NCBI GenBank assembly: GCA_045046875.1 | Contig: JASFYY010000037.1 | Coordinates: 96,509 to 160,508 of the forward strand | DNA: 64,000 nt | Direction of reading: 5' to 3' | Source of the DNA: Verrucomicrobiota bacterium | GTDB taxonomy: Bacteria; Verrucomicrobiota; Verrucomicrobiia; Verrucomicrobiales; DEV007 | Position numbers and translations under genes: made by a program | Shown: positions 19,543 to 60,036 of the stretch, in pieces | How the letters are laid out: every line of letters begins with the position of its first letter | Numbering within the stretch: the stretch's first letter is position 1 | The notes under the pieces: generated by a model | The model's database searches: none | What the model saw: only the letters and a program-made list of their open reading frames with translations | Told to the model about the DNA's origin: nothing

Positions 19543-20078
19543 GCCATTTCCCCATCCTCTAAATTTTTATCCAGCTGCAAACTCACACAAGCATGCAACG
19601 ACTTCCGAATCCGGCTCAGCACCCGATACACCGCCCCACTCGTTCTACCCACCGCTTCCGCAATCGCTTCGATCGATTCCCCCCCTTCGTAACGCAAGTT
19701 GACAATGCGCTGATGCTCAGGATCCAACTTGGCCACACAAGATGCCAGACTTTGATAACGAGCCTCCAAATGGCTTTCATCATCTTTCAATTCTTCAGCC
19801 ACCAGTTCAACAAAACGGTCACTGAAACAAAGTCGATCCCTTTGTTTGCGCTTGCGATAAGCCAACACTTGATAAAAAGCTACCTTCCTCGCCCACGCAC
19901 CAAAATTAGTGCCCAGTTTAAAATCCCCGAAATGCCGCCACATCACCACTTTGGCCTCTTGCAGAATATCATCCGCATCCGACGCCTGGGGAGCCATGGA
20001 CATCACATACAAATACAATCCGCGCTCATGCTCGGACAACAAACGGATAAAAGCTTCAGTATCTGGGGAATCAGGCAT
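19539..20078 (-). CDS. ECF sigma-70 factor
   Basis: DADDILQE, FGAWARKVA, region-4 HTH; 4-bp overlap with the FecR gene. Confidence 0.92.
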   Translation of the reverse strand: MPDSPDTEAFIRLLSEHERGLYLYVMSMAPQASDADDILQEAKVVMWRHFGDFKLGTNFGAWARKVAFYQVLAYRKRKQRDRLCFSDRFVELVAEELKDDESHLEARYQSLASCVAKLDPEHQRIVNLRYEGGESIEAIAEAVGRTSGAVYRVLSRIRKSLHACVSLQLDKNLEDGEMA

Positions 20079-22230: not shown

Positions 22231-25200
22231 ATGAAAAAATCCAATCCTCACCCCTTTCCCTCCATTGTTAAAATAGGTTTTGCCTTCAGTTTGTTATTTG
22301 CCTTTGCCTGCAACAGTCAAGCCGAGCTGAGTTTCAAAAAAGACGACCACATCGTTCTCATCGGCAATACCCTGCCCGACCGCTTTCAGCACGTCGGGTG
22401 GCTGGAAACGCTGCTGCAAGATGCGAACCCCGATCTACAACTCGTATTCCGCAACCAGGCCGTCTCCGGTGATACCGTGAGTAAAAGACCTCGCAGTAAA
22501 GGTTTCAAGCCTGTCGATGACTACCTCACTCACAGCAAAGCCGACATCATTTTCACTTTTTTTGGTTACAACGAATCTTTTGCTGGAGACAAAGGAATCG
22601 ATAAGTTCAAAAAAGACCTCGTCAGCATGGTGGGAAAATACCGTAAGCTGAAACCCAACGGTAAGTCTGCCCCCCGCATTGTTCTATTCAGCCCGATTGC
22701 CCACGAAAACCTCAACAACCCCAACCTGCCCGATGGAAAATCCAATAACGAGCGTTTGGCCAAATACACCGCAGCGATCAAAGAGGTAGCCGCACAACAG
22801 AAAACCGGTTTTGTCGATCTCTTTTCCAGCTCACAAACCCTTTATGGCGCAGCAAAAAAACCCCTCACCATCAACGGCATTCACCTCACTGAAGAAGGCA
22901 ACCGCCAACTCGCTGAAGTCATTGCCAAACAGCTCACTGGGAAAACGCTGGCCGCCACCGATAAACTCGAAGCCCTGCGCCAGGGAGTGATCGACAAAAA
23001 CTGGCACTGGTTCAACCGCTTCCGCGCCACCGACGGCAATGATGTCTGGGGCAGTCGCTCAACCCTTAAATTCTACAACGACCAAAGCAACGGTACCGTA
23101 CTGATGCACGAGCTCACCATGCTCGACGTCATGACCGCCAACCGTGACGTTCGAGTGCATGCCCTCTCCCGAGGCAGCGACATCGCCGTAGTGGACAGCA
23201 ATGTCCCCAAACCGGTTAAAGTGATTTCAAACATCGGCGGCGGCAGCAAAAGCTCCAATGCGATGAAAGAAGGTACCCTGAATTACCTCAGCGGTGAAGA
23301 AGGCGTCGCCAAACTCAAAGTGCCCAAAAATTTCAAAGTCAATCTGTTTGCCGATGAAAAAATGTTCCCTGAATTGGCCAATCCGGTGCAAATGCAAGTT
23401 GATGGCAAAGGCCGCCTGTGGGTTGCCGCTTGGAACACCTACCCCAAATGGGAACCGATGAAAAAAATGGATGACAGCATCCTCATTCTTAGCGACGAAG
23501 ACCACGACGGCGTTGCCGACAAAGTGACCACCTTCGCCAATGTCCACAACCCACTAGGTTTTGAATTCTGGAATGGGGGAATCCTGGTGACCCGCCAACC
23601 CGACATCCTTTTCTTGAAAGACACCGACGGTGATGACGTCGCCGATGTCAAAATCCGTTACCTCAACGGCATTGGCTCAGCCGACACCCATCACACTGCC
23701 AACAACCTGGTCATGGGACCTGATGGCGCCATCTACTGGCAAAGCGGTATCTTCATGCACAATAACATCGAGCACCCCTGGGGCCCCTCTCTCAGCACCG
23801 GATCCTCTGCGACTTATCGCTTTGATCCACGCCAATACACCATCAGTCACCACGCCACCAATAGCCCCAACCCGCATGGCACCTCCTTCGATTACTGGGG
23901 TTATCACTACGCCAATGACGGCACCGGCGGCCGTGCCTACCAAGTTCGCCCCGAGGGCAAAGGATTCAAAATGTTTCCTCTCTTGGACAAAGAAGTGCGT
24001 CCGGTCGCCGCCGACCAAATCATATCCAGTCAGAACTTTCCCGACGAAATGCAAGGCGACTTCCTGATCTGTAATACCATCGGATTCCTCGGCATCAAAC
24101 AATACAAACTCAATCTGGACGGTGGAGTCGAACGCAGCCGCACCGAAGGTAAGGGCGACAAAAAGAAAACGGTTAAATGGACAAGCAAACTCGGCGAAGC
24201 CTGGGGTGTTCCTTCCGGCAGCGAGTTGATCACCCACAGCATTGATCCCAAAACCGGAGAGAAAAAAGAAACCCGTAATATTGGTTTCCTGATCAGTGAA
24301 GACAAAAACTTCCGCCCCACCGACGCCGTCTTCGGCGAAGATGGAGCCCTTTACGTTTCTGACTGGCAAAATGTCATCATCGGACATATGCAGCACAATA
24401 TCCGCGACCCCAATCGCGATCACAAACACGGCCGTATTTACCGGGTCGTTAATCAAGACAAACCGCTGCAAAAGCCTGTCAAAATCGATGGGGCTTCACT
24501 GCCCGAGTTGATGACCAATCTTGAACATCCGGTTAACGGAGTCCGTCACCGCACCCGGGTTGAACTCAGCGAACGTCCCAGCAAGGATGTGATCGAGGCA
24601 TGCCAAAAATGGATGAAAAAGTTCGACCCGAAAAAGAAAGCAGACGCACATCACTTGCTTGAAGCTCTGTGGGTGCATCAGCAGCACAACGTGCGCAATA
24701 CCAAGCTTCTCGGACAAGTGCTGGTTTCACCCGAACCTCATGCCCGTGTCGCGGCGAACACCGTGCAGCACTACTGGTACAACGTAGATCTCACCAACAC
24801 CTCGGGCGAGAAATTCGAGACTCACAAAGAGAGCAAGCTGCCCAAAGGAATCATCTCCGACAGCGCTGACCTCACCGTGGTGCAAATCAATACCGTGGTG
24901 GAAAAAATGCGTTACGACGTAAAAGAGTTCACCGTAAAGTCGGGCAAAAAGATCAAACTGACCTTTACCAATCCTGACTTCATGCCGCACAACCTGATGA
25001 TCACCCTGCCAAAAAGCGCTGAAGAAGTGGCCTTGGCAGCAATGGCCATGGGCGCTGAAGGCTTCACCAAAGGCTTCCACCCCGATAGCCCGAAAATCCT
25101 CTGGGCAACCAAGATGCTCGATAATGGACAGGATGCCGTGTTAGAATTCACCGCCCCGGATAAACCCGGCGACTACGAGTTTGTCTGCACCTTCCCCGGT

Positions 25201-25242
25201 CACTACATGCTAATGCGCGGCATCATGAGGGTGGTGAAATAA
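22231..25242 (+). CDS. PVC-type secreted multidomain protein: SGNH-like + dehydrogenase-like beta-propeller + HEAT + cupredoxin
   Basis: Signal peptide; FFGYNES…NGIH (SGNH-like); FRPTD…DGALYVSDW…GRIYR propeller; C-terminal MPHN…[12 protein letters not shown] type-1 Cu site. Confidence 0.82.
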
Positions 25243-25267
25243 TAATAAGGTTTGCTTCTTGATATTC

Positions 25268-25310
25268 AGAGGGACGTGGATTGACTGCAATCCACGTCCC
25301 TCTTTTTTTT
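25268..25310 (+). terminator. Intrinsic terminator
   Basis: Perfect 16-bp stem AGAGGGACGTGGATTG/CAATCCACGTCCCTCT, 4-nt loop, T tract. Confidence 0.9.
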
Positions 25311-25423
25311 CTTAAAGCCGAGCTTACCACTCCACCGCTCTCGGCCCAGAGAGCTCCATTCCGACAGCCTCGCTGAAAGCCTCTTGCAGCCCAAGCTGAC
25401 TGGCTTATGGTTCTTTCAACCCC

Positions 25424-26431
25424 ATGAAAAAATTACTCCCCCTCATTGTTTCTGTTTGGCTATTATCCTTAATAGGCTCCCCCGCAGCACCCCTCGTTTA
25501 TGAAGGCTCCACTGGTCCCGGCAAGGACAAACACATCGTTTTCATCGCCAACGACCACAACTACCGTTCGCAGGAATCCCTGACCGCTCTCGCCCGCATC
25601 CTCGCCAAACACCATGGCTTCAAATGCACGGTGCTCTTTGGAATAGATCCCAAAACCGGCATCATTCTACCTGGAGAGTCCAACATCCCGGCAATGGAGA
25701 ATCTGAAGACCGCCGACCTGCTAGTGCTTTTTGCCCGATTTCAAAACCTGCCCCAAGCTCAGATGCAGCACTTTGTGGACTACTTGGATCGCGCAGGCCC
25801 CATCGTCGCACTACGAACATCCACTCATGCATTCAAAATCCCCCAGGATGCCCCCTTTGCCAAATACTCATACGACTATCCAAAAAAGGATTACCTTGGA
25901 GGTTTTGGGCGTCAGGTTTTAGGAGAAACTTGGAACGGCCACCATGGAAAAAACAATCAACAAAGCACCCGACTTCCCCTCATAGAAGAAAAATCCAACC
26001 ATCCTATACTCCGTGGGGTCAAAGACATGTGGGTGCCGTCAGGGGGATATTTCACCGCCCCCACCGAGGACTGCAAAATCCTAGCCATGGCACAGCCCCT
26101 GAATGGCATGCAAGCCGATTCCAAAGTGGCGAGTGAACTGAAAGCCGCACCGGGCGCTTGGACCCGAACTTATCAAGGCAAAAATAAAACACACGGACGC
26201 ACTTTTACCAGCACCTACGGTGCCTCCGATGATATTCTGAACGAGGGCTACCGCCGCATGCTGATCAACGCCTGCTTCTGGGCCGCCGGCTTGGAAGAAA
26301 AAATTCAAGCCAAAGCCGACATCAGCTTAGTAGGCCCCTATCACCCCACCTGGCTCAACGCAGCCGATCCTCACTTCGCAAAACCGGAAACTCTCAGCAG
26401 TTGGGACAGCCCTATTGGATCGTTGAAATAA
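25424..26431 (+). CDS. ThuA-like (class I glutamine amidotransferase-like fold) secreted protein
   Basis: Signal peptide; LRTSTHAF, HPILRGV, AWTR, RRMLINACFWA. Confidence 0.78.
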   Translation: MKKLLPLIVSVWLLSLIGSPAAPLVYEGSTGPGKDKHIVFIANDHNYRSQESLTALARILAKHHGFKCTVLFGIDPKTGIILPGESNIPAMENLKTADLLVLFARFQNLPQAQMQHFVDYLDRAGPIVALRTSTHAFKIPQDAPFAKYSYDYPKKDYLGGFGRQVLGETWNGHHGKNNQQSTRLPLIEEKSNHPILRGVKDMWVPSGGYFTAPTEDCKILAMAQPLNGMQADSKVASELKAAPGAWTRTYQGKNKTHGRTFTSTYGASDDILNEGYRRMLINACFWAAGLEEKIQAKADISLVGPYHPTWLNAADPHFAKPETLSSWDSPIGSLK

Positions 26432-26440: not shown

Positions 26441-27088
26441 TCACTCCACTCTTCCCTGCACCAACTTCCCGTCCTCAAGAAAAAACTCCTTATCGGCAAT
26501 CAAGTCGGCCTCCCGCCGACTATGGGTGATATGCAATGCGGTGATCCCATGCTCCTTCACCACCGAACGGATCAACTCAACCATGCCTTCATGAGTCTCT
26601 TCATCAAGAGCGCTCAGCGGTTCATCGAGACAAATAATCTTCGGCCGCACCGCCAGGGCCCGGCCCAAAGCCACCCGTTGACGTTCGCCTCCACTCAGGC
26701 CAAAAGGCTTGCGCTCTAAAATATCTTCGATCCCCAATTCTTCAGCCAGTTCCGGCACTCGTTGCTCGATTTCCTTTTTTCCCCAGCCCTGAACCTTTGG
26801 ACCAAAAGCCAATTGTTGGCGCACCGTCATCGTCGCAAACAAAGCCCCATCCTGCGGCACAAAACCAATGCCACGCTCCCCCGCCCGCAGCCGGGTCACA
26901 TCCCGGCCCATCAAAGTGATTCGACCGCTCACCACTTCTTTCAAACCACAGATAGCTTCCAATATCGTCGTTTTGCCACATCCGGTTTTCCCCATCAACA
27001 CCCCGTGCTCCCCCGTAGGCACTTCAAAAGAAATGCCATCGATGCAAAAGTCCCCCGCTCTGACGGAAAGCTGTTCAACTGAAATCAT
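26441..27088 (-). CDS. ABC transporter ATPase, ModC/CysA-like (no C-terminal TOBE domain)
   Basis: GKTGCGKT, LSGGERQR, LDEP, ITH. Confidence 0.88.
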   Translation of the reverse strand: MISVEQLSVRAGDFCIDGISFEVPTGEHGVLMGKTGCGKTTILEAICGLKEVVSGRITLMGRDVTRLRAGERGIGFVPQDGALFATMTVRQQLAFGPKVQGWGKKEIEQRVPELAEELGIEDILERKPFGLSGGERQRVALGRALAVRPKIICLDEPLSALDEETHEGMVELIRSVVKEHGITALHITHSRREADLIADKEFFLEDGKLVQGRVE

Positions 27089-27091
27089 TTT

Positions 27092-27988
27092 TTATAATAC
27101 AAATTTTTTCCTGCTCTCCCGGCCCCACATTCTGACCGCAATCAATACCACCACCGCGATCGACACCATCATCAGCGATACAATCACCGCACCTTCCAAG
27201 TTACCAATACTGATCTCCAGGAATACTGAAGAAGACAACACTTCGGTGCGCCCTCGTATGGTTCCCGCAAAAACCAGAATCGGACCAAACTCTCCCATCG
27301 CCCGGGTCCAAGCCAATGTACCTGCCGTTGAAACCCCCCGCCAAGCTTCCGGCACCACCACCCGAATAAAAGCCTGCGCCCGGTTGCAGCCCAAAGTCAA
27401 CGCCACCTGCTCGGCACGCGGACTGATCTGATCAAAGGTATTGCGCATCGTGCGAACCGCAAAAGCTGCCGCCACGGTAAACTGGGCAAGAATCACCGCA
27501 GGCACCTTATAAGTGATACCGGCATCCATGCCTTCCGGCATGAAGGGACCAAAAATCTTGCCGAACATTTCTTCAAAACTCGGCCCGTCTATTCCCAGCC
27601 ATTCCCATGGCGGCATCTTGTTGAACAAAATCAGCAAACTCAAACCCACCACCAAGGGCGGCAACACAATCGGAATATCCAGCACCGCATCAATCAGAGC
27701 CTTGCCACGGAAATCATAACGCGACAGCAAATAGCCAATCGGCAAAGCCACCATAACCGACAACAGCGCGGTCACCGTGCAGGTGAACAAAGTCAACTTC
27801 ACCGAACTCTGAATATACTCATCTGCTAGAATCGCTTTAAATTCCTCCCAGCCCACATTGCTCACCGAATAAAACACATCCGCCATCAGCATCCCGCCGA
27901 TCAACAGCAGATACATCACGGCAATGCCGATCATTGCCGCAAAAAACGGAACATCCGAGCGGACTTTAACTGGTGAGTGATCCGCCAC
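27092..27988 (-). CDS. Molybdate/tungstate-type ABC permease (ModB-like)
   Basis: DIPIVLPPLVVG, EAA loop, RAMGEFG. Confidence 0.88.
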   Translation of the reverse strand: MADHSPVKVRSDVPFFAAMIGIAVMYLLLIGGMLMADVFYSVSNVGWEEFKAILADEYIQSSVKLTLFTCTVTALLSVMVALPIGYLLSRYDFRGKALIDAVLDIPIVLPPLVVGLSLLILFNKMPPWEWLGIDGPSFEEMFGKIFGPFMPEGMDAGITYKVPAVILAQFTVAAAFAVRTMRNTFDQISPRAEQVALTLGCNRAQAFIRVVVPEAWRGVSTAGTLAWTRAMGEFGPILVFAGTIRGRTEVLSSSVFLEISIGNLEGAVIVSLMMVSIAVVVLIAVRMWGRESRKKFVL

Positions 27989-27991
27989 AGT

Positions 27992-29524
27992 TTATTGCTC
28001 TTTTTTGCCCTCTTCTTCTTTCCCCAGTTCCCAGCGAAAACCATGTTTCATGAATTTCTTCTTACCCTGAACCGACACCGCTGCGGTGAAAAAGCGATCG
28101 AGCAAATAGCGGTGTTTTGAATTTTTAGCCACCGCATACGGTTGATGGGCAATCGCATTGGGACGATCAATACCCACAATTTCATAATCATCCACCGTCG
28201 ATTGACTGGCCATTGCGTTGCTCTTATAAACAATCACCGCATCCAAGGAGCCCGTCTTAACCTGATTGACCAAAAAATCCCCGGTGGGCGAATCCATTTT
28301 GATATTGCCCGAATCCACCACCTTTTGATACAAACCCTCTTCTTCCAACAGATACTTGGTCAGGAAACCCAAGGCCGATTTCTGCGGATGGGCAAAACCC
28401 AAACGAATCCCTTCTTTTGATAAATCCGTCAGTTTGAGAATCCCTTTAGGATTGCCCTTTTCGGTAAGAATCACCATCTCATTAGCTGAAACCAAAGTGG
28501 ATTCTAGAAAACGGTCTGCCACCATTTGCATAAACTTTACGTCGCAGGAAAAATAAGCGTCGGGTTTTTCTCCGGCTTTCATTTGCGAGACCAATACCCC
28601 ACAACCATTGAACACCGGCGTGATCGTCACCCCTTCACGTTTCTCAAAGGATTTGATAGTATCCTGAATCGCCGGACGCAACATCGCACCGCTGAACAAT
28701 AAAATATCAGGCTTCAGCGCCCACTCGTCCCCATCAACCACGTCATATCCTTCTTTCTTGAATACCGGCAAACCCTTGTCTTTGGCGCTCAAATAACGAC
28801 AGAACCTCAAAGCCTCCGTCGGTTGCTTGGAAGCCGTCAAAACCCCAATTGTGATATTTTTCCTCTCAACATCAAACTCCGGCAGATTGACAAAATCAAT
28901 TTCATCATACTGGTGAGTCAACGCGTCCCAGCAAATCACCACATCCACCGTGCCCAGTTTCAAGGCATTCGCCAATTCGTTCACTGTCGGCAACAAAACC
29001 GTTGGTTTTACATCTTTCCAAATACCATGTTTACTAAGAACCTTTTTGGTGAACTTGCCCACCGACGCCGCATCCGGGTTGGCAATGCCTATTTTTAAAT
29101 CTTTACGCGTCAAATCCGCCAGTTTGCTCAATCCTTTGGGATTACCCTTGGGCACTCCGAAACCCGCGCGCATGAAAGCCACCGGCATGGTTTCTTCCAG
29201 CAATTTTTTACCCTTGGCGATATCCGTGTAACTCGAATCGGCTGCCAGGTAAATATCGCCCGGCGCGATCTCCAAACTGCTCAACAAGGTTCCCGAACCG
29301 CCATATTGCAGTTGCACTTTCACCCCGTATTCTTCTTCATATTTTTTTGCTACCTCGACCACTGGAGCCTTTATCCCCGCTGCGCAAAACATCACCAGGG
29401 TCTTGTCCTTGCCACCTCCGCCACCACAAGCCACTAGCAAAAAAACGGACAACAAAACCACCGCAGCCTGGGTAAAGGGTTGCAGCAAATACAAAAAAGA
29501 ATTCTTAATTAAATGCATCATCAC
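27992..29524 (-). CDS. ModA-like substrate-binding lipoprotein with two tandem SBP modules
   Basis: Lipobox LVAC; duplicated motifs (KGNPKGL / KGNPKGI, YGGSG / FNGCG, DIYLAAD / DAYFSCD). Confidence 0.85.
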   Translation of the reverse strand: MMMHLIKNSFLYLLQPFTQAAVVLLSVFLLVACGGGGGKDKTLVMFCAAGIKAPVVEVAKKYEEEYGVKVQLQYGGSGTLLSSLEIAPGDIYLAADSSYTDIAKGKKLLEETMPVAFMRAGFGVPKGNPKGLSKLADLTRKDLKIGIANPDAASVGKFTKKVLSKHGIWKDVKPTVLLPTVNELANALKLGTVDVVICWDALTHQYDEIDFVNLPEFDVERKNITIGVLTASKQPTEALRFCRYLSAKDKGLPVFKKEGYDVVDGDEWALKPDILLFSGAMLRPAIQDTIKSFEKREGVTITPVFNGCGVLVSQMKAGEKPDAYFSCDVKFMQMVADRFLESTLVSANEMVILTEKGNPKGILKLTDLSKEGIRLGFAHPQKSALGFLTKYLLEEEGLYQKVVDSGNIKMDSPTGDFLVNQVKTGSLDAVIVYKSNAMASQSTVDDYEIVGIDRPNAIAHQPYAVAKNSKHRYLLDRFFTAAVSVQGKKKFMKHGFRWELGKEEEGKKEQ

Positions 29525-30276
29525 AATTTTTTACAAATTTCACAATCAGGGTTTCGCGCGATTTTCACCTTTTGCAGTTTCATCGTCAAAGTATCAAAAT
29601 AAATCAAGCGGTTCAAGTTTACCCCTGACAAGCCCGCAATCAACTTAATCCCTTCCATCGCACCAATGTTGGCGATCAAGGCCGACACCGCACCGATCAC
29701 CGGAAAACGACGTTTCCAATGAGCAGGCACTTCCGGATACAGACAAGCCAGGCAAGCGGTTTCACCTGGCACAATGGGAATCACTTGCCCCTCCATATTG
29801 AACATCGCACAATCAATCAGCGGCTTCTGCTGCAACACACACTCCCGATTCATCAAAAAACGCTCTTCGAATAAAGGCGCTGCATCAAAAACGATGTCCG
29901 CCCGCTCTACCAAATCCACTGCATTGTCCTCGGTAAAATTTTCCGCCACCGTTTCAATTTCAATATGGGGATTAAATTGACGCAGGGTCTCAGCCGCTGC
30001 ATCCACCCGGTTTTTACCCAAATAATCATGCCGCATCAATATCTGACGATTCAAATCATCCGGACGTAAATGACCGCCATGCACCAAAATCAATTTTCCA
30101 ATGCCTGCCGCCGCCAGAGACAAGGCCAATGGCCCACCCAGACCTCCTATTCTAGAAACCAGCGCCGTGCTGTTTCGCAATTTCACCTGCCCTTGTTCTC
30201 CCAAGCCAGGCACATTCAATTGCCATTCATAAATCGCCCGATCACGATCCGATAATTCATTCTCAATTTCTTCCAT
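29521..30276 (-). CDS. HesA/MoeB/ThiF family E1-like adenylyltransferase
   Basis: IGGLG, DLNRQ, CLAC and C-terminal CEIC zinc motifs. Confidence 0.9.
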   Translation of the reverse strand: MEEIENELSDRDRAIYEWQLNVPGLGEQGQVKLRNSTALVSRIGGLGGPLALSLAAAGIGKLILVHGGHLRPDDLNRQILMRHDYLGKNRVDAAAETLRQFNPHIEIETVAENFTEDNAVDLVERADIVFDAAPLFEERFLMNRECVLQQKPLIDCAMFNMEGQVIPIVPGETACLACLYPEVPAHWKRRFPVIGAVSALIANIGAMEGIKLIAGLSGVNLNRLIYFDTLTMKLQKVKIARNPDCEICKKL

Positions 30277-30306
30277 TGTTCTCGAATGACTCAGAATTTC
30301 TAATTC

Positions 30307-30588
30307 TTAACCTCCTGCGATCGGTGTCATCAGCATCAACACCTTCACTCCCTCCAGAGACAAATTTCCTTTATCCCCCGCCGCCTGTTCACCATCCAAG
30401 ACCACCAGCAAAGTCGATCGAATACGCCCCTCCCCATCAAAAACCAGTTCACCAAATTTTTCACCATACACCTCCAGGCGTCCCTTTAACACATCCGCCA
30501 CAGAATCCCCTTCAGCGACCTCAACCGCCTCCTCCGATGCTCCCACCACCGAGGCCAACTGGCCTGTGTAATCGATGGTTAAAGTCAT
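30307..30588 (-). CDS. MoaD/ThiS ubiquitin-like sulfur carrier
   Basis: 93 aa ending in PIAGG. Confidence 0.9.
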   Translation of the reverse strand: MTLTIDYTGQLASVVGASEEAVEVAEGDSVADVLKGRLEVYGEKFGELVFDGEGRIRSTLLVVLDGEQAAGDKGNLSLEGVKVLMLMTPIAGG

Positions 30589-31310
30589 CCTTCCTGCCCC
30601 TCCTTTTTCTCACCTTGTTGATCTGAAGAAATCATTTTACCTCCATCCAAATGCATCGCCGATTTCGCCGCGGCCTTGGCTCGGTCATCATGAGTCACCA
30701 TGATCACCGCTCCACCGTCATCAGCAAAGTCCGCCAAATGTTGCAGTATGATTTCCGAATTTTCCGGGTCGAGATTTCCTGTCGGTTCATCAGCCAATAC
30801 CAACTCTGGAGAATGTAATAATGCTCGGGCCAAGGCCACCCGTTGCTGTTCGCCGATACTCAATTTGGACGGCACATGATGCAGCCGGTGACCGATATTA
30901 AATTTCTCTAACAATTCGCGGGCTCGATCCCCGTTTGATTCACCGCCGGACGATCTGTTCGCCAGATCTCCTATCAATACATTATCCAACACATTGAGGT
31001 AGGGGATCAAATGAAACTGCTGGAAAACAAAACCCACGTGTTCGGCACGAAAAGCAGCCTGCCCCTCAGCTTTTAATTCATAAGGGTTTTTCCCCGCGAT
31101 TTCGATCACCCCCTCATCCGGAGATAACAAAGCTCCCGTCATCAATAACAAAGTCGATTTTCCGCAGCCACTCGGCCCATGCAAAGCGACAAAATCTCCC
31201 GCACAAATCTCAAAAGAAACGTCATTGACCGCATGTACCTCCTCCTCGGTGGTCACAAACCTTTTATGCAAGCCTTCTGCTTTTACGGCTATTGGTTGAT
31301 TATCAGTCAT
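30585..31310 (-). CDS. ABC ATPase, LolD/MacB-type
   Basis: GPSGCGKSTLL, VGFVFQQFHL, LSIGEQQR, ADEPTGNLD, VTHD. Confidence 0.92.
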   Translation of the reverse strand: MTDNQPIAVKAEGLHKRFVTTEEEVHAVNDVSFEICAGDFVALHGPSGCGKSTLLLMTGALLSPDEGVIEIAGKNPYELKAEGQAAFRAEHVGFVFQQFHLIPYLNVLDNVLIGDLANRSSGGESNGDRARELLEKFNIGHRLHHVPSKLSIGEQQRVALARALLHSPELVLADEPTGNLDPENSEIILQHLADFADDGGAVIMVTHDDRAKAAAKSAMHLDGGKMISSDQQGEKKEGQEG

Positions 31311-32583
31311 AGCGTAACACGTCTGCTGGATCTTTTTGAGCTGCCATTAATGAAGGCAACCAGGCGGACACCGCCGCCAAAACGGGAGCCGCGAGCAAAA
31401 GCCATGCACACTCGCTCACGCTGATCACCTCGGCCAAAGTGATGCCATGGAAAAAACGTTCCTTCAGCAAAGGATAAATCACGGCAAAAAACACCGCCCC
31501 CAGCGAAGCCCCCAACAAACCCGCCACCACCGCTCTGGAAAGAAAAGCCGTCAGAATAATTTTCGAACTCACCCCGATCGCTCGCAACACCCCGATCTCC
31601 GTCACCCGCTCACGCACATTCATAAACGCCAACATCGCAATCCAAGCCATCGCAAACAACAATACGATCGGCAGTAAAACACCCGCAAACCGTTCCCGCT
31701 CTGCACTCGCCTGTTTGCGGTGCTGCTTGGCCGTGGCAATTTGCTTTTGCGCCGTTGCTTTGGCCTTGGTCCGGGATTCCGCACGAGCCAAAGCCGTGCT
31801 TCCGGTTTCGGTGATTTGGGTGTTTGGCAAAATCTGCATCAACTCAGCCCGAATCTCTCCCAGGCGATCCAGCGTCGCGCAGTTGCATTCGAGCGCCTGG
31901 ATCGCATTGATCAGTCCCTTTTTACCTAACAACTCCTGACACTCAGTGAGGTTCATCCAAATCGTGATATCATCCTTACTGCCTCTTTCTGGATAAGCTT
32001 TGCTCAACTTGAACGACTTACCCTTGAACATCAACTCATCGCCCGGCTTCAAGCCCAAACTGCGGTGCAGTTCATAACCGAGCACCAACTCTCCTTTTTT
32101 CACCGGATCGATCAACGGTGATTTAGGGTCCCGATGCGCCAACGGCACTTCGCCGCGCACTCCGATCAAAATCACATTACGCTTTTTTTCCGGCCACTCC
32201 AGCTTCTGGGTCAGGCTGGGAAGCAAATGATTGACCGTCACAATTTTTGAGTTCGCTAGGATCGTCGCATACTCTTCAGGCATCGTCTTGGACGCATAAC
32301 CCTGGTCATAGACTTCACTCATATCCTGATCCTTGGGGAAAATGTAGATATTAAAACCCAGCCCCTTCATCGTTTTGCGGATATCATCCTCCAACTGCTT
32401 CATCTCCTTCTCAGTATCCGCTTCCATCTTGGCGATGAGCTCATCCGAGTTCAATTCGAAAGATCGCATCGCCGCTAAAGTTGCCAGCACACACACAACC
32501 GCCAACGCCGCGCCCAGCAAAGCGAGAAAAAAGTTCGTCTTGCGGTGAAAAATTTCCCGCAGTACCAATCGACTCAAATTCAT
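31303..32583 (-). CDS. FtsX/MacB/LolC-type ABC permease
   Basis: TM1, large periplasmic domain, then ERVTEIGVLRAIG and three further TMs. Confidence 0.88.
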   Translation of the reverse strand: MNLSRLVLREIFHRKTNFFLALLGAALAVVCVLATLAAMRSFELNSDELIAKMEADTEKEMKQLEDDIRKTMKGLGFNIYIFPKDQDMSEVYDQGYASKTMPEEYATILANSKIVTVNHLLPSLTQKLEWPEKKRNVILIGVRGEVPLAHRDPKSPLIDPVKKGELVLGYELHRSLGLKPGDELMFKGKSFKLSKAYPERGSKDDITIWMNLTECQELLGKKGLINAIQALECNCATLDRLGEIRAELMQILPNTQITETGSTALARAESRTKAKATAQKQIATAKQHRKQASAERERFAGVLLPIVLLFAMAWIAMLAFMNVRERVTEIGVLRAIGVSSKIILTAFLSRAVVAGLLGASLGAVFFAVIYPLLKERFFHGITLAEVISVSECAWLLLAAPVLAAVSAWLPSLMAAQKDPADVLRYD

Positions 32584-32584
32584 A

Positions 32585-33883
32585 TCAGTCGGCGTTCTTT
32601 TTGAGCATTACCGTTCCCGCACCGATCACCACGATCACTACACCGACAATCAATATCAAGGGCATCAACGGCATCCCTTGTTGTTCCGCTTGCTCGGCAT
32701 TTTGCTCAGAGGATTCGCCTGCTGTTCCGCCTTCAGCCTCTTGGCCGTCTTCACCTGCTTGACTACCCGCGCTTCCCCCGTCCTCAGCATCAGCCGCCTG
32801 CTCAGTCGTCACTTCCCCCAACACCGTCGCTCCGCCTTGCGGCGCTGCTGCAGCGTGACTGCCTTCCATCGAATGACTGCCCTTGTTTTTTGCCATCAAA
32901 GCCGCCGTGCCTTCCAAAGGTGGTAGCATTTTATCAATGATCACCTGACTGCCCTCCATCGCCGCGTCCCAATCCATTGCCACCAGCAAATCAATGCCCG
33001 GGTTCTGATCCTTCACCTCACAGGAACAAGCCCCCGTCAGATAAGCCGAATGCTCAATGACATTATCGTAATTAAGCCCCAGCCCGATCAAAGGCTCCAA
33101 AATCCGCCCACGACCAAAAACCGGAAACGCCATGGGTTCTTTGGAATACTCACCCAAGTCATCCTCCAGATTCAGCAACATCTGCAAAAACACTTCCTCC
33201 TCCACATCAAGCCGCGAGATCCTCAACACGGAAAAACCAATTTTCAGCGGCACATCCGATTGCAAAATATTCGCTTCATCCCCGGGACGCATCTCTTTCT
33301 GTTTCTCAGTATCATTTTTTCCCACCACTCCGTCAGGCAAAGTCAGTTTTTTCGAGGCTTTGGCAGCATGCTCAATCAAAGCCTTTTCCGCAGCATCATC
33401 CTTTTTAGGGTCGCCACTTTCCACTAACAACCATGTAGCCGACTCGCCAGTTAAAATCCGCTTGACCAATTCTTTCCGCAATGGCGATTGCACTATCTTA
33501 CCAGCGTTCTCTATCGTCGCGTCCCCGCTCCAAATAGGCTTGGTCAAAAAACCACGCATTTTGCCCGGATAAAAAAGATCCAACCGAGCCACACTGCTGT
33601 TATTCTCTCCTTCAGCATCCACCTTGACCGTTATATTGGCAGGAAAATCCTGATCGAGTGCGGCATCGCGCAAAGCTTTTAACGCCGCCTCTTCCGCAGG
33701 TTTCAACCCACCTTGAGCCGGCACACAAATCAACTCGTAAGCATCCGCCGGCCAGCGCTCCAAGGCATAGCGGAAAACCGGAACCTGACAGGCCAACAAA
33801 ATTCCCCCGGCGGTTAAGCTCAAAAGCAAAACCAGAGTGAAAAGCCTCTGGGGTGGAGTGATTGAACGGGGGGATATCTTCAT
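32585..33883 (-). CDS. Uncharacterised exported protein with Cys motifs and C-terminal membrane anchor
   Basis: Signal peptide then CQVPVFRYALERW; GACSCEVK; low-complexity linker; C-terminal TM followed by KK. Confidence 0.75.
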   Translation of the reverse strand: MKISPRSITPPQRLFTLVLLLSLTAGGILLACQVPVFRYALERWPADAYELICVPAQGGLKPAEEAALKALRDAALDQDFPANITVKVDAEGENNSSVARLDLFYPGKMRGFLTKPIWSGDATIENAGKIVQSPLRKELVKRILTGESATWLLVESGDPKKDDAAEKALIEHAAKASKKLTLPDGVVGKNDTEKQKEMRPGDEANILQSDVPLKIGFSVLRISRLDVEEEVFLQMLLNLEDDLGEYSKEPMAFPVFGRGRILEPLIGLGLNYDNVIEHSAYLTGACSCEVKDQNPGIDLLVAMDWDAAMEGSQVIIDKMLPPLEGTAALMAKNKGSHSMEGSHAAAAPQGGATVLGEVTTEQAADAEDGGSAGSQAGEDGQEAEGGTAGESSEQNAEQAEQQGMPLMPLILIVGVVIVVIGAGTVMLKKNAD

Positions 33884-34179
33884 AACAAACGCTGCGTGCT
33901 AATCTGACACCCTACCGGCTCAAGTTCAAGCGCACTTTGCAGAGAAATCTGACGCGTTCCTCCCAGTGAACCTTACTCGATTTTTCACCCAACTTCACAC
34001 CTTTCACTGAAAGAACTAACTATGCGAGGCCGCGATCGCTCTATCGATGTCCAAATCCCCCCTCCACCCACACTCGAGTGAGAACAGTGAAAATTAAAAA
34101 AAATCTATTTTTACTCACACTACATGACAAAAATATTCCAACCACAACCGGAATGCAGTGTAGATAGACGGAGTCAAAT

Positions 34180-34263
34180 TGCACTGATTATCACTGATAG
34201 AGAGGAAGCAGTAAGTTGAGAAAATATTATAACATCAGTGTTTCCTAGTGCCCATCAGTGGTT
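34180..34263. repeat. Imperfect inverted repeat (CACTGAT/ATCAGTG REP-like family)
   Basis: GCACTGATTATCACTGAT … ATCAGTGTTTCCTAGTGCCCATCAGTGG in an AT-rich intergenic gap. Confidence 0.45.
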
Positions 34264-34312
34264 AAATCCTTCAATTTTAAAAAATGTAGTATGCTTTTTT
34301 CTACATCACCCC

Positions 34313-37278: not shown

Positions 37279-39510
37279 TCATTTCCCCCGCACATCGAGC
37301 TCCTCAAAGCCCAGTAGCCTGAACACCTGCTGCTCTCCCACCCGGAAATCATCCGCTCCCGGATCCTTTAAGCTCGGATCCAGCACCATACTGCCACGCT
37401 CCACCCCCCGTGCCCTCTGCTCGCGCAAAAATTCCTCCGCCCAATTTTTATCCGCGGAGTTGAAATACAAGTTATAATCCGATTGGCACGAACTCAAAGA
37501 AGCCGGCGCTTGCACTCGTCCTCCACGCTTCCAGCCCTTTTGATGTTCATACAAAATCACCTGCCCCGCCTCCCGCGATACAAATATATTGCGCTGCACC
37601 CGTGATCCTTTCACCGGCGCCCCGCTGAAAACCAGATATCCCCGCTGATGAATCACCGGCTTCCCCTCCGGAGTCCCCGATCTCAAATCATAAATGATAT
37701 TATTGAGAATATCATTTCTCCCTTTGCTTATAATCCCCTCCCCACACACCCGAGCGATCACATTTTTTTCGATCACCACCCCATGCTGGTCATCATCACA
37801 GCGAATCGCCGCATTCATATTCGCCGTTATCACATCATGAATAAAATTATGCCTTACCCGGTTGCCCTTACCCGTGCCTGACACATAAATCGCATTACCG
37901 TCCCCCATCACTTCCATGCAATGCGAAATATCATTGTAGGCAATCATATTAAAACGCCCATGCATCAACGGCTCTCGCTTCAACCAACTGCGTTCCTCAC
38001 CCTCCAGTAACAAATTCAACTCATCCCAGCGCACTGTGCGACTCGACTCCTTACGCCCTTCTCGATCCAGTTGAGTCCGTCCGCTCACCACGATCGCCGT
38101 ATAGGGCACATGATGAATCCGATTTCGCACGACCTGGTTCATCCCGCTTTGCCAAATGAAAATCGCCGGAGAATGTTTCCATACGCGCCCAATATGATGC
38201 ATTTCATTATCAGCAATCACATTAGCCTTATTAACGTCCTTCATCCCCAATCCATAACCCGCCATCAACACCCCCACCCCTCCAAGTTGGGAAAACTCAC
38301 AGCGCCTTACTTCATTACGCTGACAGTGCAAATCCAAGCGAATCCCAGCCGCTCCACTGTCCACAAAACGACACTGGGTAAAGCTGCAATCCTCCGCACC
38401 TCGCAGACGAACCATCGCCGAAGCTTGATCATGCATTTCCCAATCATGCTGCAAGCCCCTACCGGACTTACTCGCACCCCAGGCAAAAGCATTGGTCTGG
38501 GTAAAAGCCAAACGATGAAAACTCAATCCCTTCACCGGTCGGTCCCGTAAGTCCGTCTCATCAACTTCCCCCTCAATCAGTATCAACTGCGTCACCCGCC
38601 CCGCCATCACCTGCTTGCCCGGCTTCCCCCCTTCTATCGGCCACAAATACAGCTTCCCTTTTTTCACATCGTGAACCCATTCACCAGGTTCATCCAACAC
38701 CGCCAACACATTCTCCACCCACAAACTTCCCTCAGGAAAATAAGCGGCAGGCGGCGGCACCATTGCATAGGTCGCCGGCTCTCTCGTTTTGATCAATCCG
38801 CTTTCACCATCCACACTCTCCACCGACAGCCGATTCATAACCCATGGGTATTTGGGCACCAACTCGATCTCAGCCCCAGCAAGATTCCCCAGCTTGTTCA
38901 CCCAAGCCTTAGACAAATACAAATGCCGCTGATCAATCGCCCGCCGAAAACGATACGGCACATCAGCGGGAGGTTTGGCCAATGACTGCATCCCCTCACT
39001 GCGCGCTCGAGGCAGCATTTCCCTTCCATCAAACAGGGTCCGTATCTGCACCCATCCCTGCGGCACATCCATCTGCCAGACATTCGCCATCTCACTCTGC
39101 CTCCATTCCCCCGGCAAGGGACTTGCCCCACTCAACACGGCATTCTCTCCTGGATAACTCGCATACACCACCCGCGATCCGGCGCCTGCACTGTCTTGTA
39201 GAGAAAATACCACCGTTCTCTCCATGTGATAAGTCCCCCCACGCAGCCACACCCGGATTTCTTTCCCCTGGCCTCTGTTCACCTGCCGCACCGCATCTCT
39301 AGCCCGCTGCAAAGTAGCAAAAGGAGCCGACTCACTGCCCGCCTGCTGATCATCACCATTCACCGCAACAAAAAACTCCACCTTCTCTGCTGCCGATACC
39401 TGCCACCCGACGCCCATCATCAGGCAGCCACCGAGCAGACTCAAAAAACATCTCCCCCCTTTTCGCCCCCCCTGGCCGATCTCTTTAAACCATGAAACCA
39501 TATCCGTCAC
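37279..39510 (-). CDS. Secreted right-handed parallel beta-helix protein (GH141-like glycoside hydrolase)
   Basis: FFVAVNGDD…PFATLQRARDAVR, LRGGTY, LDEPGEW, beta-helix repeats, DGNAIY. Confidence 0.78.
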   Translation of the reverse strand: MTDMVSWFKEIGQGGRKGGRCFLSLLGGCLMMGVGWQVSAAEKVEFFVAVNGDDQQAGSESAPFATLQRARDAVRQVNRGQGKEIRVWLRGGTYHMERTVVFSLQDSAGAGSRVVYASYPGENAVLSGASPLPGEWRQSEMANVWQMDVPQGWVQIRTLFDGREMLPRARSEGMQSLAKPPADVPYRFRRAIDQRHLYLSKAWVNKLGNLAGAEIELVPKYPWVMNRLSVESVDGESGLIKTREPATYAMVPPPAAYFPEGSLWVENVLAVLDEPGEWVHDVKKGKLYLWPIEGGKPGKQVMAGRVTQLILIEGEVDETDLRDRPVKGLSFHRLAFTQTNAFAWGASKSGRGLQHDWEMHDQASAMVRLRGAEDCSFTQCRFVDSGAAGIRLDLHCQRNEVRRCEFSQLGGVGVLMAGYGLGMKDVNKANVIADNEMHHIGRVWKHSPAIFIWQSGMNQVVRNRIHHVPYTAIVVSGRTQLDREGRKESSRTVRWDELNLLLEGEERSWLKREPLMHGRFNMIAYNDISHCMEVMGDGNAIYVSGTGKGNRVRHNFIHDVITANMNAAIRCDDDQHGVVIEKNVIARVCGEGIISKGRNDILNNIIYDLRSGTPEGKPVIHQRGYLVFSGAPVKGSRVQRNIFVSREAGQVILYEHQKGWKRGGRVQAPASLSSCQSDYNLYFNSADKNWAEEFLREQRARGVERGSMVLDPSLKDPGADDFRVGEQQVFRLLGFEELDVRGK

Positions 39511-40535: not shown

Positions 40536-41684
40536 TCACACCCTCGGCGTGATCCGTCTCTTAGCGATCCCCTGAAACCTCGCTTTGCCAGAGATATCTC
40601 CCTGGCGAAAAATATTAAGCAAAATCCCTATCCCCGCCATCACCGCCATCAAAGCCGATCCGCCATAAGAAATAAACGGCAAGGGCAAACCTGTGTTAGG
40701 CAGAACCGAAGTCGTCACCCCGATATTCACCACCGCCTGCAAACTGATAAAACTCACAATGCCAACTCCCAGCATCGTGCCAAAACGATCACGTGCGTGA
40801 AAGGCAATGGTCAGCCCCGCCACAGAGATCAATAAAAAAGCAAACACCACCGCCAAGGTCACCCTCAAACCCAGCTCCTCCCCGATCATCGGAAAAATAA
40901 AATCCGTATGAGCAAAAGGCATGTACAACATCTTTAATCTGCCCGACCCCAGCCCCATACCTTCCACGCCCCCCGAACCCAAAGCCATCAAAGCCATCCA
41001 CTGCTGCAAGCCCACCCCCGAGCGATGCAAGTCCGGATGTAAAAAGGCCGTCAATCGTTCCATTTTATCCGGACGCTCTAAAACCATCAAAGTGAATGCT
41101 CCTACCGCAAGCGCACTGCTCATCGCCAGGTATTTCCAATCCGTCCCCCCCACAAACATCAACACAAAAACCACCGCAGAAAGAATCACCGTGGTTCCCA
41201 AATCCACCTCGAATAAAACCAAAGCCACCATCAGGCCCGAGATCAATCCCGGGAACAACAGCCCGGATCTGAACGGTTTGCCCTCATCAAAATAACGCGC
41301 AAACCAGTGCGCCATTACCACCACCATCGCCAGTTTTGCCAACTCGGAAGGCTGCAAGCTGAACACCCCGGCGATATTGATCCAACGACTTTCACCATTA
41401 AGCGTCTGCCCGACTCCCGGCACAAAACACAAGGCCAGCAACAGAATGCAAATCCCATAAATCAACCACACCATCTTCTGCAACAGATGATAATCAATGT
41501 TAGCCATCATCATGCAGACCATGCCACCAAGAACCACCCACACCAGCTGGCGCTTGACATCGTAATAGACATCCTCACTGGGCACATCGATACCAAACAC
41601 ACTCGTGCTCACTAACATAACGACGCCGACCCCCAGCAGAAAAACCACCGCAGCCATCATCACCTGTGCACTCCACTTAGTCAT
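40536..41684 (-). CDS. ftsW: SEDS peptidoglycan glycosyltransferase FtsW
   Basis: RWI…QPSELAK, HTDFIF, GEELG, LPFISYGGS; dcw context. Confidence 0.93.
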   Translation of the reverse strand: MTKWSAQVMMAAVVFLLGVGVVMLVSTSVFGIDVPSEDVYYDVKRQLVWVVLGGMVCMMMANIDYHLLQKMVWLIYGICILLLALCFVPGVGQTLNGESRWINIAGVFSLQPSELAKLAMVVVMAHWFARYFDEGKPFRSGLLFPGLISGLMVALVLFEVDLGTTVILSAVVFVLMFVGGTDWKYLAMSSALAVGAFTLMVLERPDKMERLTAFLHPDLHRSGVGLQQWMALMALGSGGVEGMGLGSGRLKMLYMPFAHTDFIFPMIGEELGLRVTLAVVFAFLLISVAGLTIAFHARDRFGTMLGVGIVSFISLQAVVNIGVTTSVLPNTGLPLPFISYGGSALMAVMAGIGILLNIFRQGDISGKARFQGIAKRRITPRV

Positions 41685-41741
41685 GATATCGTTATTTTCT
41701 TGAGTGAAAAAAGCCCCTTCGAAAGCAGCTTGAACAGATGC

Positions 41742-43996: not shown

Positions 43997-43997
43997 T

Positions 43998-45098: not shown

Positions 45099-45105
45099 CC
45101 GTTTT

Positions 45106-48062: not shown

Positions 48063-48073
48063 CTTTCTAAAAT

Positions 48074-49924: not shown

Positions 49925-49951
49925 TTAATAATTAGTATAACACCCTGGCAG

Positions 49952-59807: not shown

Positions 59808-60036
59808 GACGAAGACTGTTACTAAAATTGGCAATTCCAAAGGCATTATTCTTGATTCAGCCTTGTTAGAGCTTGTCCATTGGAAGGAAGGCGACCAGTT
59901 GTCAGTAACGATGCACGACGGAGGCAGCATCACTTTTACTCCGCTAAAAGCATCTATAAAACCCGAGCAAGCCGCCGCATTGACGGATTCGATTATATCG
60001 AGCAATGATGAATTGTTCAGCAGACTTGCAAAATAA
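59806..60036 (+). CDS. AbrB/MazE-type antitoxin
   Basis: VTKIGNSKGIILD…WKEGDQL swapped-hairpin motif; TAATG overlap with toxin. Confidence 0.9.
   Translation: MTKTVTKIGNSKGIILDSALLELVHWKEGDQLSVTMHDGGSITFTPLKASIKPEQAAALTDSIISSNDELFSRLAK

Follow-up and report, generated by a model that had tools for sequence, protein, structure and literature searches.

The window analysed here is a stretch of 64,000 nucleotides of contig JASFYY010000037.1 (positions 96,509 to 160,508 of the forward strand) in assembly GCA_045046875.1 of a Verrucomicrobiota bacterium. Eight genes on its minus strand, here called g1 to g8 (Table 1), make up a single operon, in which three modules come together of an envelope system that is conserved and widespread in Verrucomicrobiota and Planctomycetota but undescribed. 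Module A (g1-g3) consists of a secreted three-cysteine protein and an ATP-binding cassette (ABC) pair of type VII character, module B (g6-g8) is a ModA-like importer, and module C (g4-g5) is an extra pair formed by a ubiquitin-like protein and an E1-like enzyme. A sulfur compound is more likely than molybdenum (Mo) to be the cargo, and we propose, at a probability of about 0.4, that the system acquires sulfur: a thiosulfate-like oxyanion would be taken up by way of periplasmic thiols, and its sulfur would be trapped as a protein thiocarboxylate.

A first reading of the stretch, made from its letters and open reading frames (ORFs) alone (the sequence-only reading), had described eight co-oriented genes with overlaps or very short gaps. 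The ORF coordinates bear this out: neighbouring genes overlap by 8 bp (g2/g3) or 4 bp (g3/g4 and g5/g6), or are separated by 1 bp (g1/g2), 3 bp (g6/g7 and g7/g8) and 30 bp (g4/g5). The same reading had seen no moaA, moaC, moaE, moeA, thiG or molybdoenzyme gene in the window, in agreement with a Pfam scan of 54 window ORFs of at least 90 aa (the sole one left out being the antisense ORF 30276-30626), which found none of these families.

Table 1. Genes of the operon and its likely promoter region (positions within the window).
Feature	Position	Strand	Length (aa)	Assignment
g1	32585-33883	minus	432	no Pfam or NCBIfam match
g2	31303-32583	minus	426	MacB/FtsX-type (type VII) ABC permease
g3	30585-31310	minus	241	ABC ATPase, LolD/MacB/FtsE group, partner of g2
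g4	30307-30588	minus	93	MoaD/SAMP1-like ubiquitin-fold sulfur-carrier candidate, C-terminus ...IAGG
g5	29521-30276	minus	251	ThiF/MoeB-family E1-like adenylyltransferase without rhodanese domain
g6	27992-29524	minus	510	tandem ModA-like substrate-binding lipoprotein
g7	27092-27988	minus	298	ModB/NifC/CysTW-type ABC importer permease
g8	26441-27088	minus	215	short importer ATPase, ModC/WtpC/CysA type, without C-terminal TOBE/Mop domain
Likely promoter region of the operon	33884..34312	minus		intergenic, upstream of g1

Recurrence of the Modules Across Genomes and Phyla

Related clusters were sought in a sample of 401 genomes of the phylum. The counts ignore kinship, and because related genomes are not independent, the co-occurrence counts overstate the statistics. 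The ModA-like type of binding protein occurs in 20 of the 29 genomes that have g1 vs. 7 of the 372 that do not, and true ModA is present in only 2 of the 29. A search with g6 returned matches at E <= 1e-20 in 27 genomes; besides the window's own genome, 13 have the full tandem form, and around these 14 tandem loci g1 is found at 7, the permease at 6 and a g5-type ThiF at 7, in orders unlike that of the window.

Loci centred on g1 number 41 (13 from a scan of one genome per species and 28 places in the 401-genome sample, with 3 further places left out). The permease lies within 3 kb of g1 at 29 of them and the ATPase within 5 kb at 28; a g3-type ATPase adjoins the g2 homologue at 28/41, and ModA-like genes lie within 10 kb of g1 at 13/41. 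The orders are shuffled, and include g1-FtsX-ABC-ModA2BC-ThiF, ModA2BC-FtsX-ABC-ThiS-ThiF and g1-ModA2-ThiF-FtsX-ABC as well as convergent forms, ModA2 being the tandem protein. Planctomycetota add giant-giant-g1-ModA2-x-ModB in a member of the Pirellulaceae (G402) and FtsX-ABC-giant-ModA-ModA-ModB-ModC at locus L146, where "giant" stands for a giant pyrroloquinoline quinone (PQQ)-like beta-propeller protein. In G269 and the Planctomycete G405, two ModA genes side by side take the place of the single tandem gene. Of five g1 genomes outside the phylum, four contain ModA-like genes of the low-scoring kind only (tandem or adjacent in three), and the fifth, from the Bryobacteraceae, has a true ModA. 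Only three close relatives (g1 identity 74-88%) have all eight genes in the window's order, and L016 has a variant of it.

The shuffled orders in two phyla argue for a functional tie between the genes despite kinship. Co-conservation across genomes of the Planctomycetes-Verrucomicrobia-Chlamydiae (PVC) group had been set beforehand as a test of the sequence-only reading, and the gene set does recur, in shuffled orders, in both Verrucomicrobiota and Planctomycetota; its view of the genes as one functionally linked system is supported. No further unknown genes common to the related clusters were found.

Genome G080 holds two full copies of the system (L058 and L059, on contigs C33 and C7) in the order ThiF-rhodanese, g1, FtsX, ABC, ModA2, ModB, ModC, ThiF, ThiS, and one copy adjoins a true ModA-ModB fusion and a ModC with a TOBE domain.

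A Secreted Three-Cysteine Protein and Its ABC Machine

The g1 family has at least 1922 homologues at E <= 1e-5 among 8000 candidates scored, and every displayed name among the 120 homologues listed is "hypothetical protein"; Pfam holds no model for the family, and in the ESM Atlas, g1 finds unnamed clusters only. In the scan of one genome per species, relatives were found at 13 loci in Verrucomicrobiota, Planctomycetota and Bryobacterales. The g1 protein consists of a signal peptide, two thioredoxin-like domains, a low-complexity linker (~316-403), a C-terminal transmembrane helix and a basic tail. Its homologues share a corresponding plan, in which a signal peptide ending in Ala is followed by a Cys, a folded region with a C-S-C motif, a variable linker, and the helix and basic tail. 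Three cysteines are invariant in 21/21 homologues: Cys32, the likely first mature residue, which lies within the motif A-C-x-V-P-V-F-R-Y-A-L-E-R-W, and Cys286 and Cys288 (C286-S-C288).

A thioredoxin fold is predicted for g1 by its AlphaFold2 model (predicted local distance difference test (pLDDT) score 75.7), which contains two thioredoxin-like domains. Matches of the model to thioredoxin folds reach a Z score of 9.2 over residues 133-286, the match to Trx2 having Z 9.2 with a root-mean-square deviation (rmsd) of 2.6 A over 101 residues, and both domains together match the b-b' domains of protein disulfide isomerase (PDI; Foldseek E 8e-4). The CxxC motif, which in thioredoxin and PDI forms the active site at the start of helix 1, is lacking in g1. 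The residue at position -1 before the Cys is always Ala, and at -3 and -2 residues such as S, A, T, D, R and Q occur. This stretch looks more like a signal peptidase I site than like a lipobox, and g1 is therefore probably not a lipoprotein. The g1 protein is membrane-anchored and secreted, and is the likely partner of the g2-g3 ABC machine. A complex prediction for the periplasmic domain of g2 (40-300) with the g1 ectodomain (31-318), from the alignments of each, gave 0.01 against a mark of 0.32, which neither supports the contact nor amounts to a verdict on it.

At the Planctomycete locus L146, a 445-aa ORF (18210-19547) lies upstream of the FtsX-ABC-giant-ModA-ModA-ModB-ModC genes; its signal peptide ends in A-C and is followed by a C-R-Y-T-V-R-D motif, and it may be a distant analogue of g1.

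The permease g2 begins with a transmembrane helix and ends in an FtsX membrane domain, with a large periplasmic domain in between. The FtsX model (PF02687) matches residues 306-419 with 44.6 bits (cut-off 25.5), and MacB_PCD (PF12704) matches residues 19-219 with 22.7 bits, under its cut-off of 27. By its FtsX domain, g2 would be assigned to type VII (the MacB/FtsX superfamily), with scores far short of the equivalog models lolCE (49.2 vs. 362.45) and MacB (25 vs. 966). The partner ATPase g3 matches ABC_tran with 110.5 bits and has LolD as its best NCBIfam model (189.3 bits, under the cut-off of 307.75). Both the lolCE and the LolD models thus stay under cut-off, and the pair is not placed in the LolCDE family. 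The periplasmic domain of g2 contains the motif A-L-E-C233-x-C235, of which the Cys-x-Cys is kept in 28/31 permeases and is invariant in 16/16 sequences of alignment A2; the three permeases without it are second copies at loci that hold two permeases. The cysteine motifs picked out by the sequence-only reading (the post-signal Cys and the C-S-C of g1, and an E-C-N-C in g2 that belongs to this Cys-x-Cys) are real, and are conserved in homologues.

A Tandem ModA-Like Binding Protein With Cysteines in Its Pocket

Behind a lipoprotein signal with the lipobox L-V-A-C, g6 comprises two SBP_bac_11 domains (272 bits; ~42-260 and 273-500). Its AlphaFold2 model (pLDDT 86.3) shows two complete ModA-fold domains, which singly superpose on ModA structures with TM-scores of 0.76-0.87 and an rmsd of 2.4-3.5 A. 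The best fold match of the whole chain is the SBD1-SBD2 tandem of GlnPQ (PDB 6h30; Foldseek E 8e-18). Whole g6 passes the modA model TIGR01256 (114.2 bits vs. a cut-off of 62.5), a score that sums two domains of 68.6 and 50.2 bits. The modA-model matches of the phylum split in two, true single-domain ModA proteins scoring 117.6-218.7 bits and ModA-like domains 27.8-81.1 bits, and by these scores g6 appears to belong to a clade apart from true ModA.

In domain 1 the motifs G-S-G-T-L and A-N-P are conserved, as in ModA, and a further cysteine, Cys47, is kept in 17/21 sequences. Domain 2 has two cysteines, Cys308 and Cys327, kept in 20/21 sequences; in the model, Cys308 opens a helix after a strand, and Cys327 lies in the next strand-helix loop. 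The pocket was mapped by aligning a true ModA of the phylum to E. coli ModA and by comparison with the published P. aeruginosa ModA, in which Thr60 is ligand-binding and Ala79 lines the pocket (PMC9171197). Cys308 maps to the ligand-binding Ser39 (E. coli) and Thr60 (P. aeruginosa), and Cys327 to the pocket-lining Ala58 and Ala79, respectively; in all three proteins the two positions lie 19 residues apart. In domain 1 the Ser39-equivalent is retained and the Ser12-equivalent is Gly, and in domain 2 the Ser39/Thr60-equivalent is Cys. With the five conserved cysteines of g1 and g2 added, conserved thiols at what are likely to be working positions are thus present in all periplasmic parts of the system.

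The permease g7 has a BPD_transp_1 domain, and its matches to the NifC-like model TIGR01581 (172.9 bits), modB (144.2 bits; cut-off 182.6) and the sulfate permease model (143.4 bits) are all under cut-off. The ATPase g8 matches ABC_tran (115.2 bits), WtpC (210 bits), the sulfate model (180 bits) and ModC (152.9 bits; cut-off 285.05), and covers only the first ~211 positions of the last three; it is taken to have no TOBE domain because only positions 4-210 of the 353 in ModC are matched. Neither g7 nor g8 thus reaches the cut-off of its modB or modC model.

Two kinds of variant cluster were recorded around such binding proteins. At L060 (8760-9251) and L063 (10787-11248), a rhodanese with a lipoprotein signal (..LFGC and ..LIGC), presumably periplasmic, is encoded right after g1-ModA2, with no ModB or ModC nearby. 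At L056 (5307-6056 and 7578-8445), the ModA2, ModB and ModC genes are interspersed with genes for a ModA-like protein that is rich in Cys and has no signal peptide, for a 4Fe-4S ferredoxin and for a multi-transmembrane protein without a family.

An Extra E1/Ubiquitin-Like Pair

The small protein g4 has no Pfam match, ThiS included, nor a match to TIGR01682; it has the Gly-Gly end, and matches SAMP1 (34.3 bits) and moaD_arch (25.6 bits; cut-off 49.5), both under cut-off. Its homologues in the clusters keep a C-terminal P-(I/V)-A-G-G, and all end in A-G-G. The adjoining g5 matches ThiF with 181 bits and has the CxxC pairs C-L-A-C and C-E-I-C, and all MoeB, ThiF and UbaA models score under cut-off (MoeB 185 vs. 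449 and 166.4 vs. 266). No HesA model is among its NCBIfam matches; the labels "HesA" for g5 and "LolD-type" for g3 in the sequence-only reading stand as names of best matches and not as family memberships. None of the eight operon proteins is a JAB/DUB or E2-like protein.

The window's genome has another ThiF-family E1 (on C159), which carries a rhodanese domain and passes two MoeB cut-offs (461.7 vs. 449 and 302.9 vs. 266); g5 is 37% identical to this MoeZ-type E1. The genome also has a second MoaD-like gene, whose product is 33% identical to g4, a ThiS beside thiH and one MoaE. In genome G089 (95% complete), where MoaC, MoeA_N and enzymes with the molybdenum bis(pyranopterin guanine dinucleotide) cofactor (Mo-bisPGD) were not found, a g5 homologue with 56.8% identity is accompanied by ThiS, within a trio of ThiS-ThiF fusion, ThiS and ThiF; G326 has the same trio beside ModA2BC-TauE. 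Both cluster copies in G080 hold a ThiF-rhodanese fusion and a g5-type ThiF with ThiS. Because of the second MoeB-type E1, the second MoaD-like gene and the homologue in G089, where no gene for the molybdenum cofactor (Moco) was found, the pair appears to be an extra sulfur-carrier system that is not bound to Moco, rather than the canonical MoaD/MoeB pair that the sequence-only reading had named as the possibility that would undo it. The pair adjoins 7/14 ModA-like loci, and is an accessory, not a core part, of the system.

Molybdenum Sinks and the ModA-Like Importer

The sequence-only reading had taken module B for a Mo/W-type importer. This label holds for family resemblance and for nothing beyond it. 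MoaC was found in 101/401 genomes. Twenty genomes combine g1 with the ModA-like type (the carriers). Nine of them, which are 89-96% complete, show neither MoaC nor a nitrogenase family (0/9), and the five of these nine that were searched further also show neither MoeA_N nor a Mo-bisPGD enzyme. As a control, all 58 genomes with true ModA have a Mo sink, namely MoaC in 49 and nitrogenase-family genes in the other 9. In this sample, true ModA is always accompanied by a known Mo sink, and the ModA-like type often is not. No Moco riboswitch was found in the window or at 15 related loci, which gave only tRNA and signal recognition particle RNA. Together with the low domain scores (27.8-81.1 vs. 117.6-218.7 bits), these results count against import of molybdenum or tungsten as read from the sequence, and the expected co-occurrence with Moco genes fails in the nine carriers without MoaC; nothing in the analysis shows the building or export of a metal cofactor or metallophore that the same reading envisaged. 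The importer is probably not a molybdate importer. As a practical warning, a "ModA" annotation in the ModA-like clade should not count as evidence of Mo use, because 9/20 carrier genomes show no known Mo sink.

Two related substrates were also considered. Selenium was rejected, SelD being above cut-off in only 3/19 carrier genomes; tungsten is unlikely too, AFOR_N (the AOR-type tungstoenzyme family) not being found in the window's genome.

Proposed Function and Alternative Explanations

Under the sulfur proposal, the cargo would be a thiophilic oxyanion of molybdate size; the leading candidate is thiosulfate, or a polythionate or polysulfide species related to it. The periplasmic thiols of g1 and g2, and in some genomes those of a lipoprotein rhodanese, would handle the sulfur compound, and the ModA-like importer g6-g8 would bring it into the cell. 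There, g5 would adenylate g4, which would trap the sulfane sulfur as a C-terminal thiocarboxylate for use in biosynthesis. Sulfur-handling accessories are encoded in the related clusters: ThiS with ThiF, ThiF-rhodanese fusions (L058, L059), a rhodanese with a lipoprotein signal in the g1-ModA2-rhodanese operons of one genus (L060, L063), TauE/SafE after ModC in two genomes (L057, L061) and a ferredoxin in one genome. These other cluster genes point to sulfur as the theme. Every carrier genome needs sulfur; NIR_SIR is present in 16/19 carriers, and SulP is missing in 5/9 of the Moco-less ones.

Several observations weigh against this proposal. We infer the substrate, the direction of sulfur flow and the contact between g1 and the permease, and the substrate is reached by elimination and from the company of neighbouring genes. 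The window's genome encodes five SulP-type transporters, and its sulfur uptake therefore does not depend on the operon. None of the operon genes encodes CysM/MetY, JAB or another enzyme that uses thiocarboxylates. The conserved cysteines might form disulfides of a structural kind, and the recurrent giant beta-propeller neighbours are accounted for by no reading. With a score of 28 bits on the sulfate-binding protein model, g6 stands closer to ModA than to the proteins that bind sulfate or thiosulfate, and its top PDB matches, by sequence and by fold, are all ModA.

These last two points favour instead the acquisition of molybdenum or tungsten, the main rival, which we regard as unlikely, and in which g6-g8 would import molybdate, tungstate or thiomolybdate, g4-g5 would feed molybdopterin synthesis or make Mo-S species, and g1-g3 would handle periplasmic metal. 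Whole g6 passes the modA model, and g7 is nearest to the NifC-like and ModB models. Also telling for metal and against sulfur, the window's genome has MoaC, MoaE and 3-4 Mo-bisPGD enzymes and no other ModA or ModA-like gene, a true modA-B/modC(TOBE) set lies directly beside the cluster in G080, and all genomes with ThiF beside the ModA-like importer are MoaC-positive (7/7). A thiometallate would suit the pocket cysteines, and two reports describe suppression of a hesA defect by molybdate or cystine (PMC6361004) and the use of thiomolybdate by a methanogen (PMC11484787). The nine carriers without MoaC or nitrogenase, set against the 58/58 true-ModA genomes that have a sink, tell the other way, as do the per-domain ModA scores, the missing riboswitch and the missing AOR-type tungstoenzyme; the lack of a true ModA in the window's genome carries little weight, because 36/101 MoaC-positive genomes have no ModA of either type. 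A rather improbable reading is a new class of ATP-driven periplasmic thiol relay, in which a type VII ABC machine with a catalytic Cys-x-Cys and a thioredoxin-like carrier with a free N-terminal Cys would mobilise a thiophilic species, either sulfane sulfur or, where the habitat is sulfidic, a thiometallate (e.g., thiomolybdate). The cysteine-lined tandem binding protein would receive this species for import, and in the cytoplasm a ubiquitin-like thiocarboxylate carrier would follow. In its boldest form, the Moco-less carriers would use an imported metal-sulfur species in a non-pterin way.

The giant propellers suggest, with as little probability as the relay, that g1 and the type VII pair mature a client: they would serve the folding, disulfide isomerisation, anchoring or release of these secreted proteins, with the importer and the sulfur carriers loosely attached. 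The tandem thioredoxin folds of g1 are PDI-like, a giant propeller (~900-1745 aa, with a signal peptide and often with methyltransferase-like and malectin domains) is encoded within 8 kb of g1 at 16/41 g1-centred loci, giant genes stand between the ABC pair and the ModA genes at L117 and L146, and the window's genome has giant propellers on at least 12 contigs. However, no giant gene lies beside the window's operon, g1 is without the CxxC motif, some chance adjacency is to be expected of a multi-copy family, and the genome-level tie to the ModA-like importer and the pocket cysteines would be left unexplained. Uptake or detoxification of a soft metal or metalloid (Hg, Cu, As, Se, Te or Cr) through cysteine ligands is very unlikely. 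It would make use of the five conserved periplasmic cysteines and those of the pocket, and MerC (L053), ChrA (L016) and TerB (L121) are encoded near the clusters; but each metal-linked neighbour was seen once, mer, ars and cop genes do not recur, SelD passes its cut-off in few carriers, and an importer for a toxic ion is itself unlikely. The chance is slimmer still that an ordinary molybdate importer, an ordinary MoaD/MoeB pair and an unrelated exporter merely lie side by side. Each module is found alone somewhere, the triad occurring without Mod genes at most loci and ModA2BC alone at L053 and L064, but the tight gene spacing (overlaps or gaps of 1-30 bp), the shuffled recurrence in two phyla, the genome co-occurrence, and the canonical E1 and MoaD-like gene encoded elsewhere in the genome all speak against coincidence.

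The giant PQQ-like beta-propeller paralogues of the window's genome are secreted (e.g., C118:60749-64384, C89:9905-13792 and C37:49180-52995). A link of these proteins to tetrathionate hydrolase was set aside and kept as a lead only: PDB entries 6l8a and 7cqy match just the generic blade repeat (E ~2e-8, residues 89-166), as is the case for many PQQ-like propellers.

Surroundings of the Operon in the Window

Upstream of g1, at 34102-34303, there are three sigma-70-like sites, of which TGGGCA-17-TATAAT is the best and has a TG extension; the count of such sites upstream of g1 is not above that in shuffles (8 vs. a mean of 8.7). No Rfam family is above threshold in the window, and matches upstream of g1 are at chance level. 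No RNA run is listed for the operon. DNA runs labelled hydrothermal vent metagenome contain 0.21-0.28 of the sampled words, on which no habitat claim is based. The flanking genes for a 524-aa protein, a polyprenyl synthase, a ThuA-like protein and a cupredoxin were considered as parts of the system and rejected, being kept only in the three closest relatives. Two plus-strand genes (22231-26431), for a 1003-aa DUF7133, GDSL and cupredoxin protein and a ThuA-like protein, converge on the end of the operon, and are kept only in the closest relative.

A complete division and cell wall (dcw) cluster occupies 40536-51416 on the minus strand, encoding the MraW methylase, a 113-aa ORF, a transpeptidase penicillin-binding protein, three Mur ligases, MraY, a LysM protein and FtsW; it is an ordinary dcw cluster, and the window is therefore chromosomal. 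GC skew is negative in 32/32 window bins (-0.08 to -0.37; cumulative -7.78), which places the window on one replichore. The operon is on the G-rich (minus) strand, and is probably co-oriented with replication. Further genes of note encode a 1587-aa UvrA-like protein (281-5044, plus) that combines several ABC/P-loop segments with the UvrA interaction and DNA-binding domains and is far longer than standard UvrA; a 743-aa right-handed beta-helix protein (37279-39510, minus) with a weak NosD match, not conserved with the operon in the annotated related loci; and two ORFs with Fic/DOC domains and one with a PIN domain, accompanied by small partner ORFs (60036-63603, plus), which resemble toxin-antitoxin systems.

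Significance and Comparison With Known Systems

Across two large phyla of environmental bacteria, the analysis ties the g1 family to an ABC machine and an importer, and often to a sulfur-carrier pair as well. If the sulfur proposal is true, PVC bacteria would acquire sulfur by a route so far unrecognised, and the operon would encode the first example of a type VII ABC system whose periplasmic thiols are conserved. If the cargo were a metal instead, the system would bear on the question of how Mo is obtained in sulfidic habitats (PMC11484787). A full-text literature search, with subscription journals outside its coverage, found no description of the system.

Each part of the system is of a known kind, as a type VII ABC machine, an importer dependent on a substrate-binding protein, and an E1/ubiquitin-like carrier pair. 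Type VII ABC systems act on periplasmic cargo by mechanotransmission. As in MacB, LolCDE and FtsEX, module A combines an FtsX membrane domain, a large periplasmic domain after the first transmembrane helix and an adjacent LolD/MacB/FtsE-like ATPase. Unlike in those systems, its permease has a periplasmic Cys-x-Cys and scores far under the equivalog cut-offs, and its neighbour is a thioredoxin-like three-cysteine protein in place of LolA, an adaptor of the MacA type or a partner of the EnvC type. In the maturation of N2O reductase, the NosDFY-NosL machinery includes an ABC machine thought to serve the assembly of a periplasmic sulfur/metal site, with NosY as an ABC-2 permease. It offers a working analogy only, the operon permease being FtsX-type and its context having no N2O reductase.

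Module B shares with the ModABC systems of E. coli and P. aeruginosa the fold of the binding protein, the permease and ATPase families, and G-S-G-T-L and A-N-P in domain 1. It differs in that g6 has two binding domains in one lipoprotein (68.6 and 50.2 bits), with Cys in domain 2 in place of the ligand-binding Ser/Thr and the pocket Ala, in that g8 has no TOBE domain, and in that the ModA-like system also occurs in genomes showing no known Mo sink. In GlnPQ, the binding domains are fused to the permease and bind amino acids. Two complete tandem binding domains serve one ABC importer there (PDB 6h30), as is proposed for module B, whereas g6 is a free lipoprotein of the oxyanion-binding class.

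The pairs MoaD-MoeB, ThiS-ThiF, CysO-MoeZ and HcyS-HcyF resemble g4-g5 in having a Gly-Gly ubiquitin-fold protein beside a ThiF-family E1 with CxxC pairs, with rhodanese partners in related clusters. The operon pair differs from them in missing all subfamily cut-offs, in being encoded without MoaE, ThiG, CysM, MetY or JAB, and in its linkage to both an ABC importer and a type VII system. The type 4e neighbourhoods of Iyer, Burroughs and Aravind (2006; PMC1779556) combine ThiS/MoaD, E1, JAB, SirA and sulfate-assimilation genes, and in the part of that survey considered here a sulfur-carrier pair likewise stands beside a sulfate/sulfite-type ABC transporter, its E1 being without rhodanese. By the same part of the survey, a type VII ABC system, a g1-like protein and a tandem ModA-like binding protein are not among the components of type 4e. 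This type is the closest published neighbourhood and shares with the operon only the carrier pair and the oxyanion transporter. Undescribed in the literature reached are the g1 family, the permease domain with its thiols, the tandem binding protein lined with cysteines, and the conserved association of these parts.

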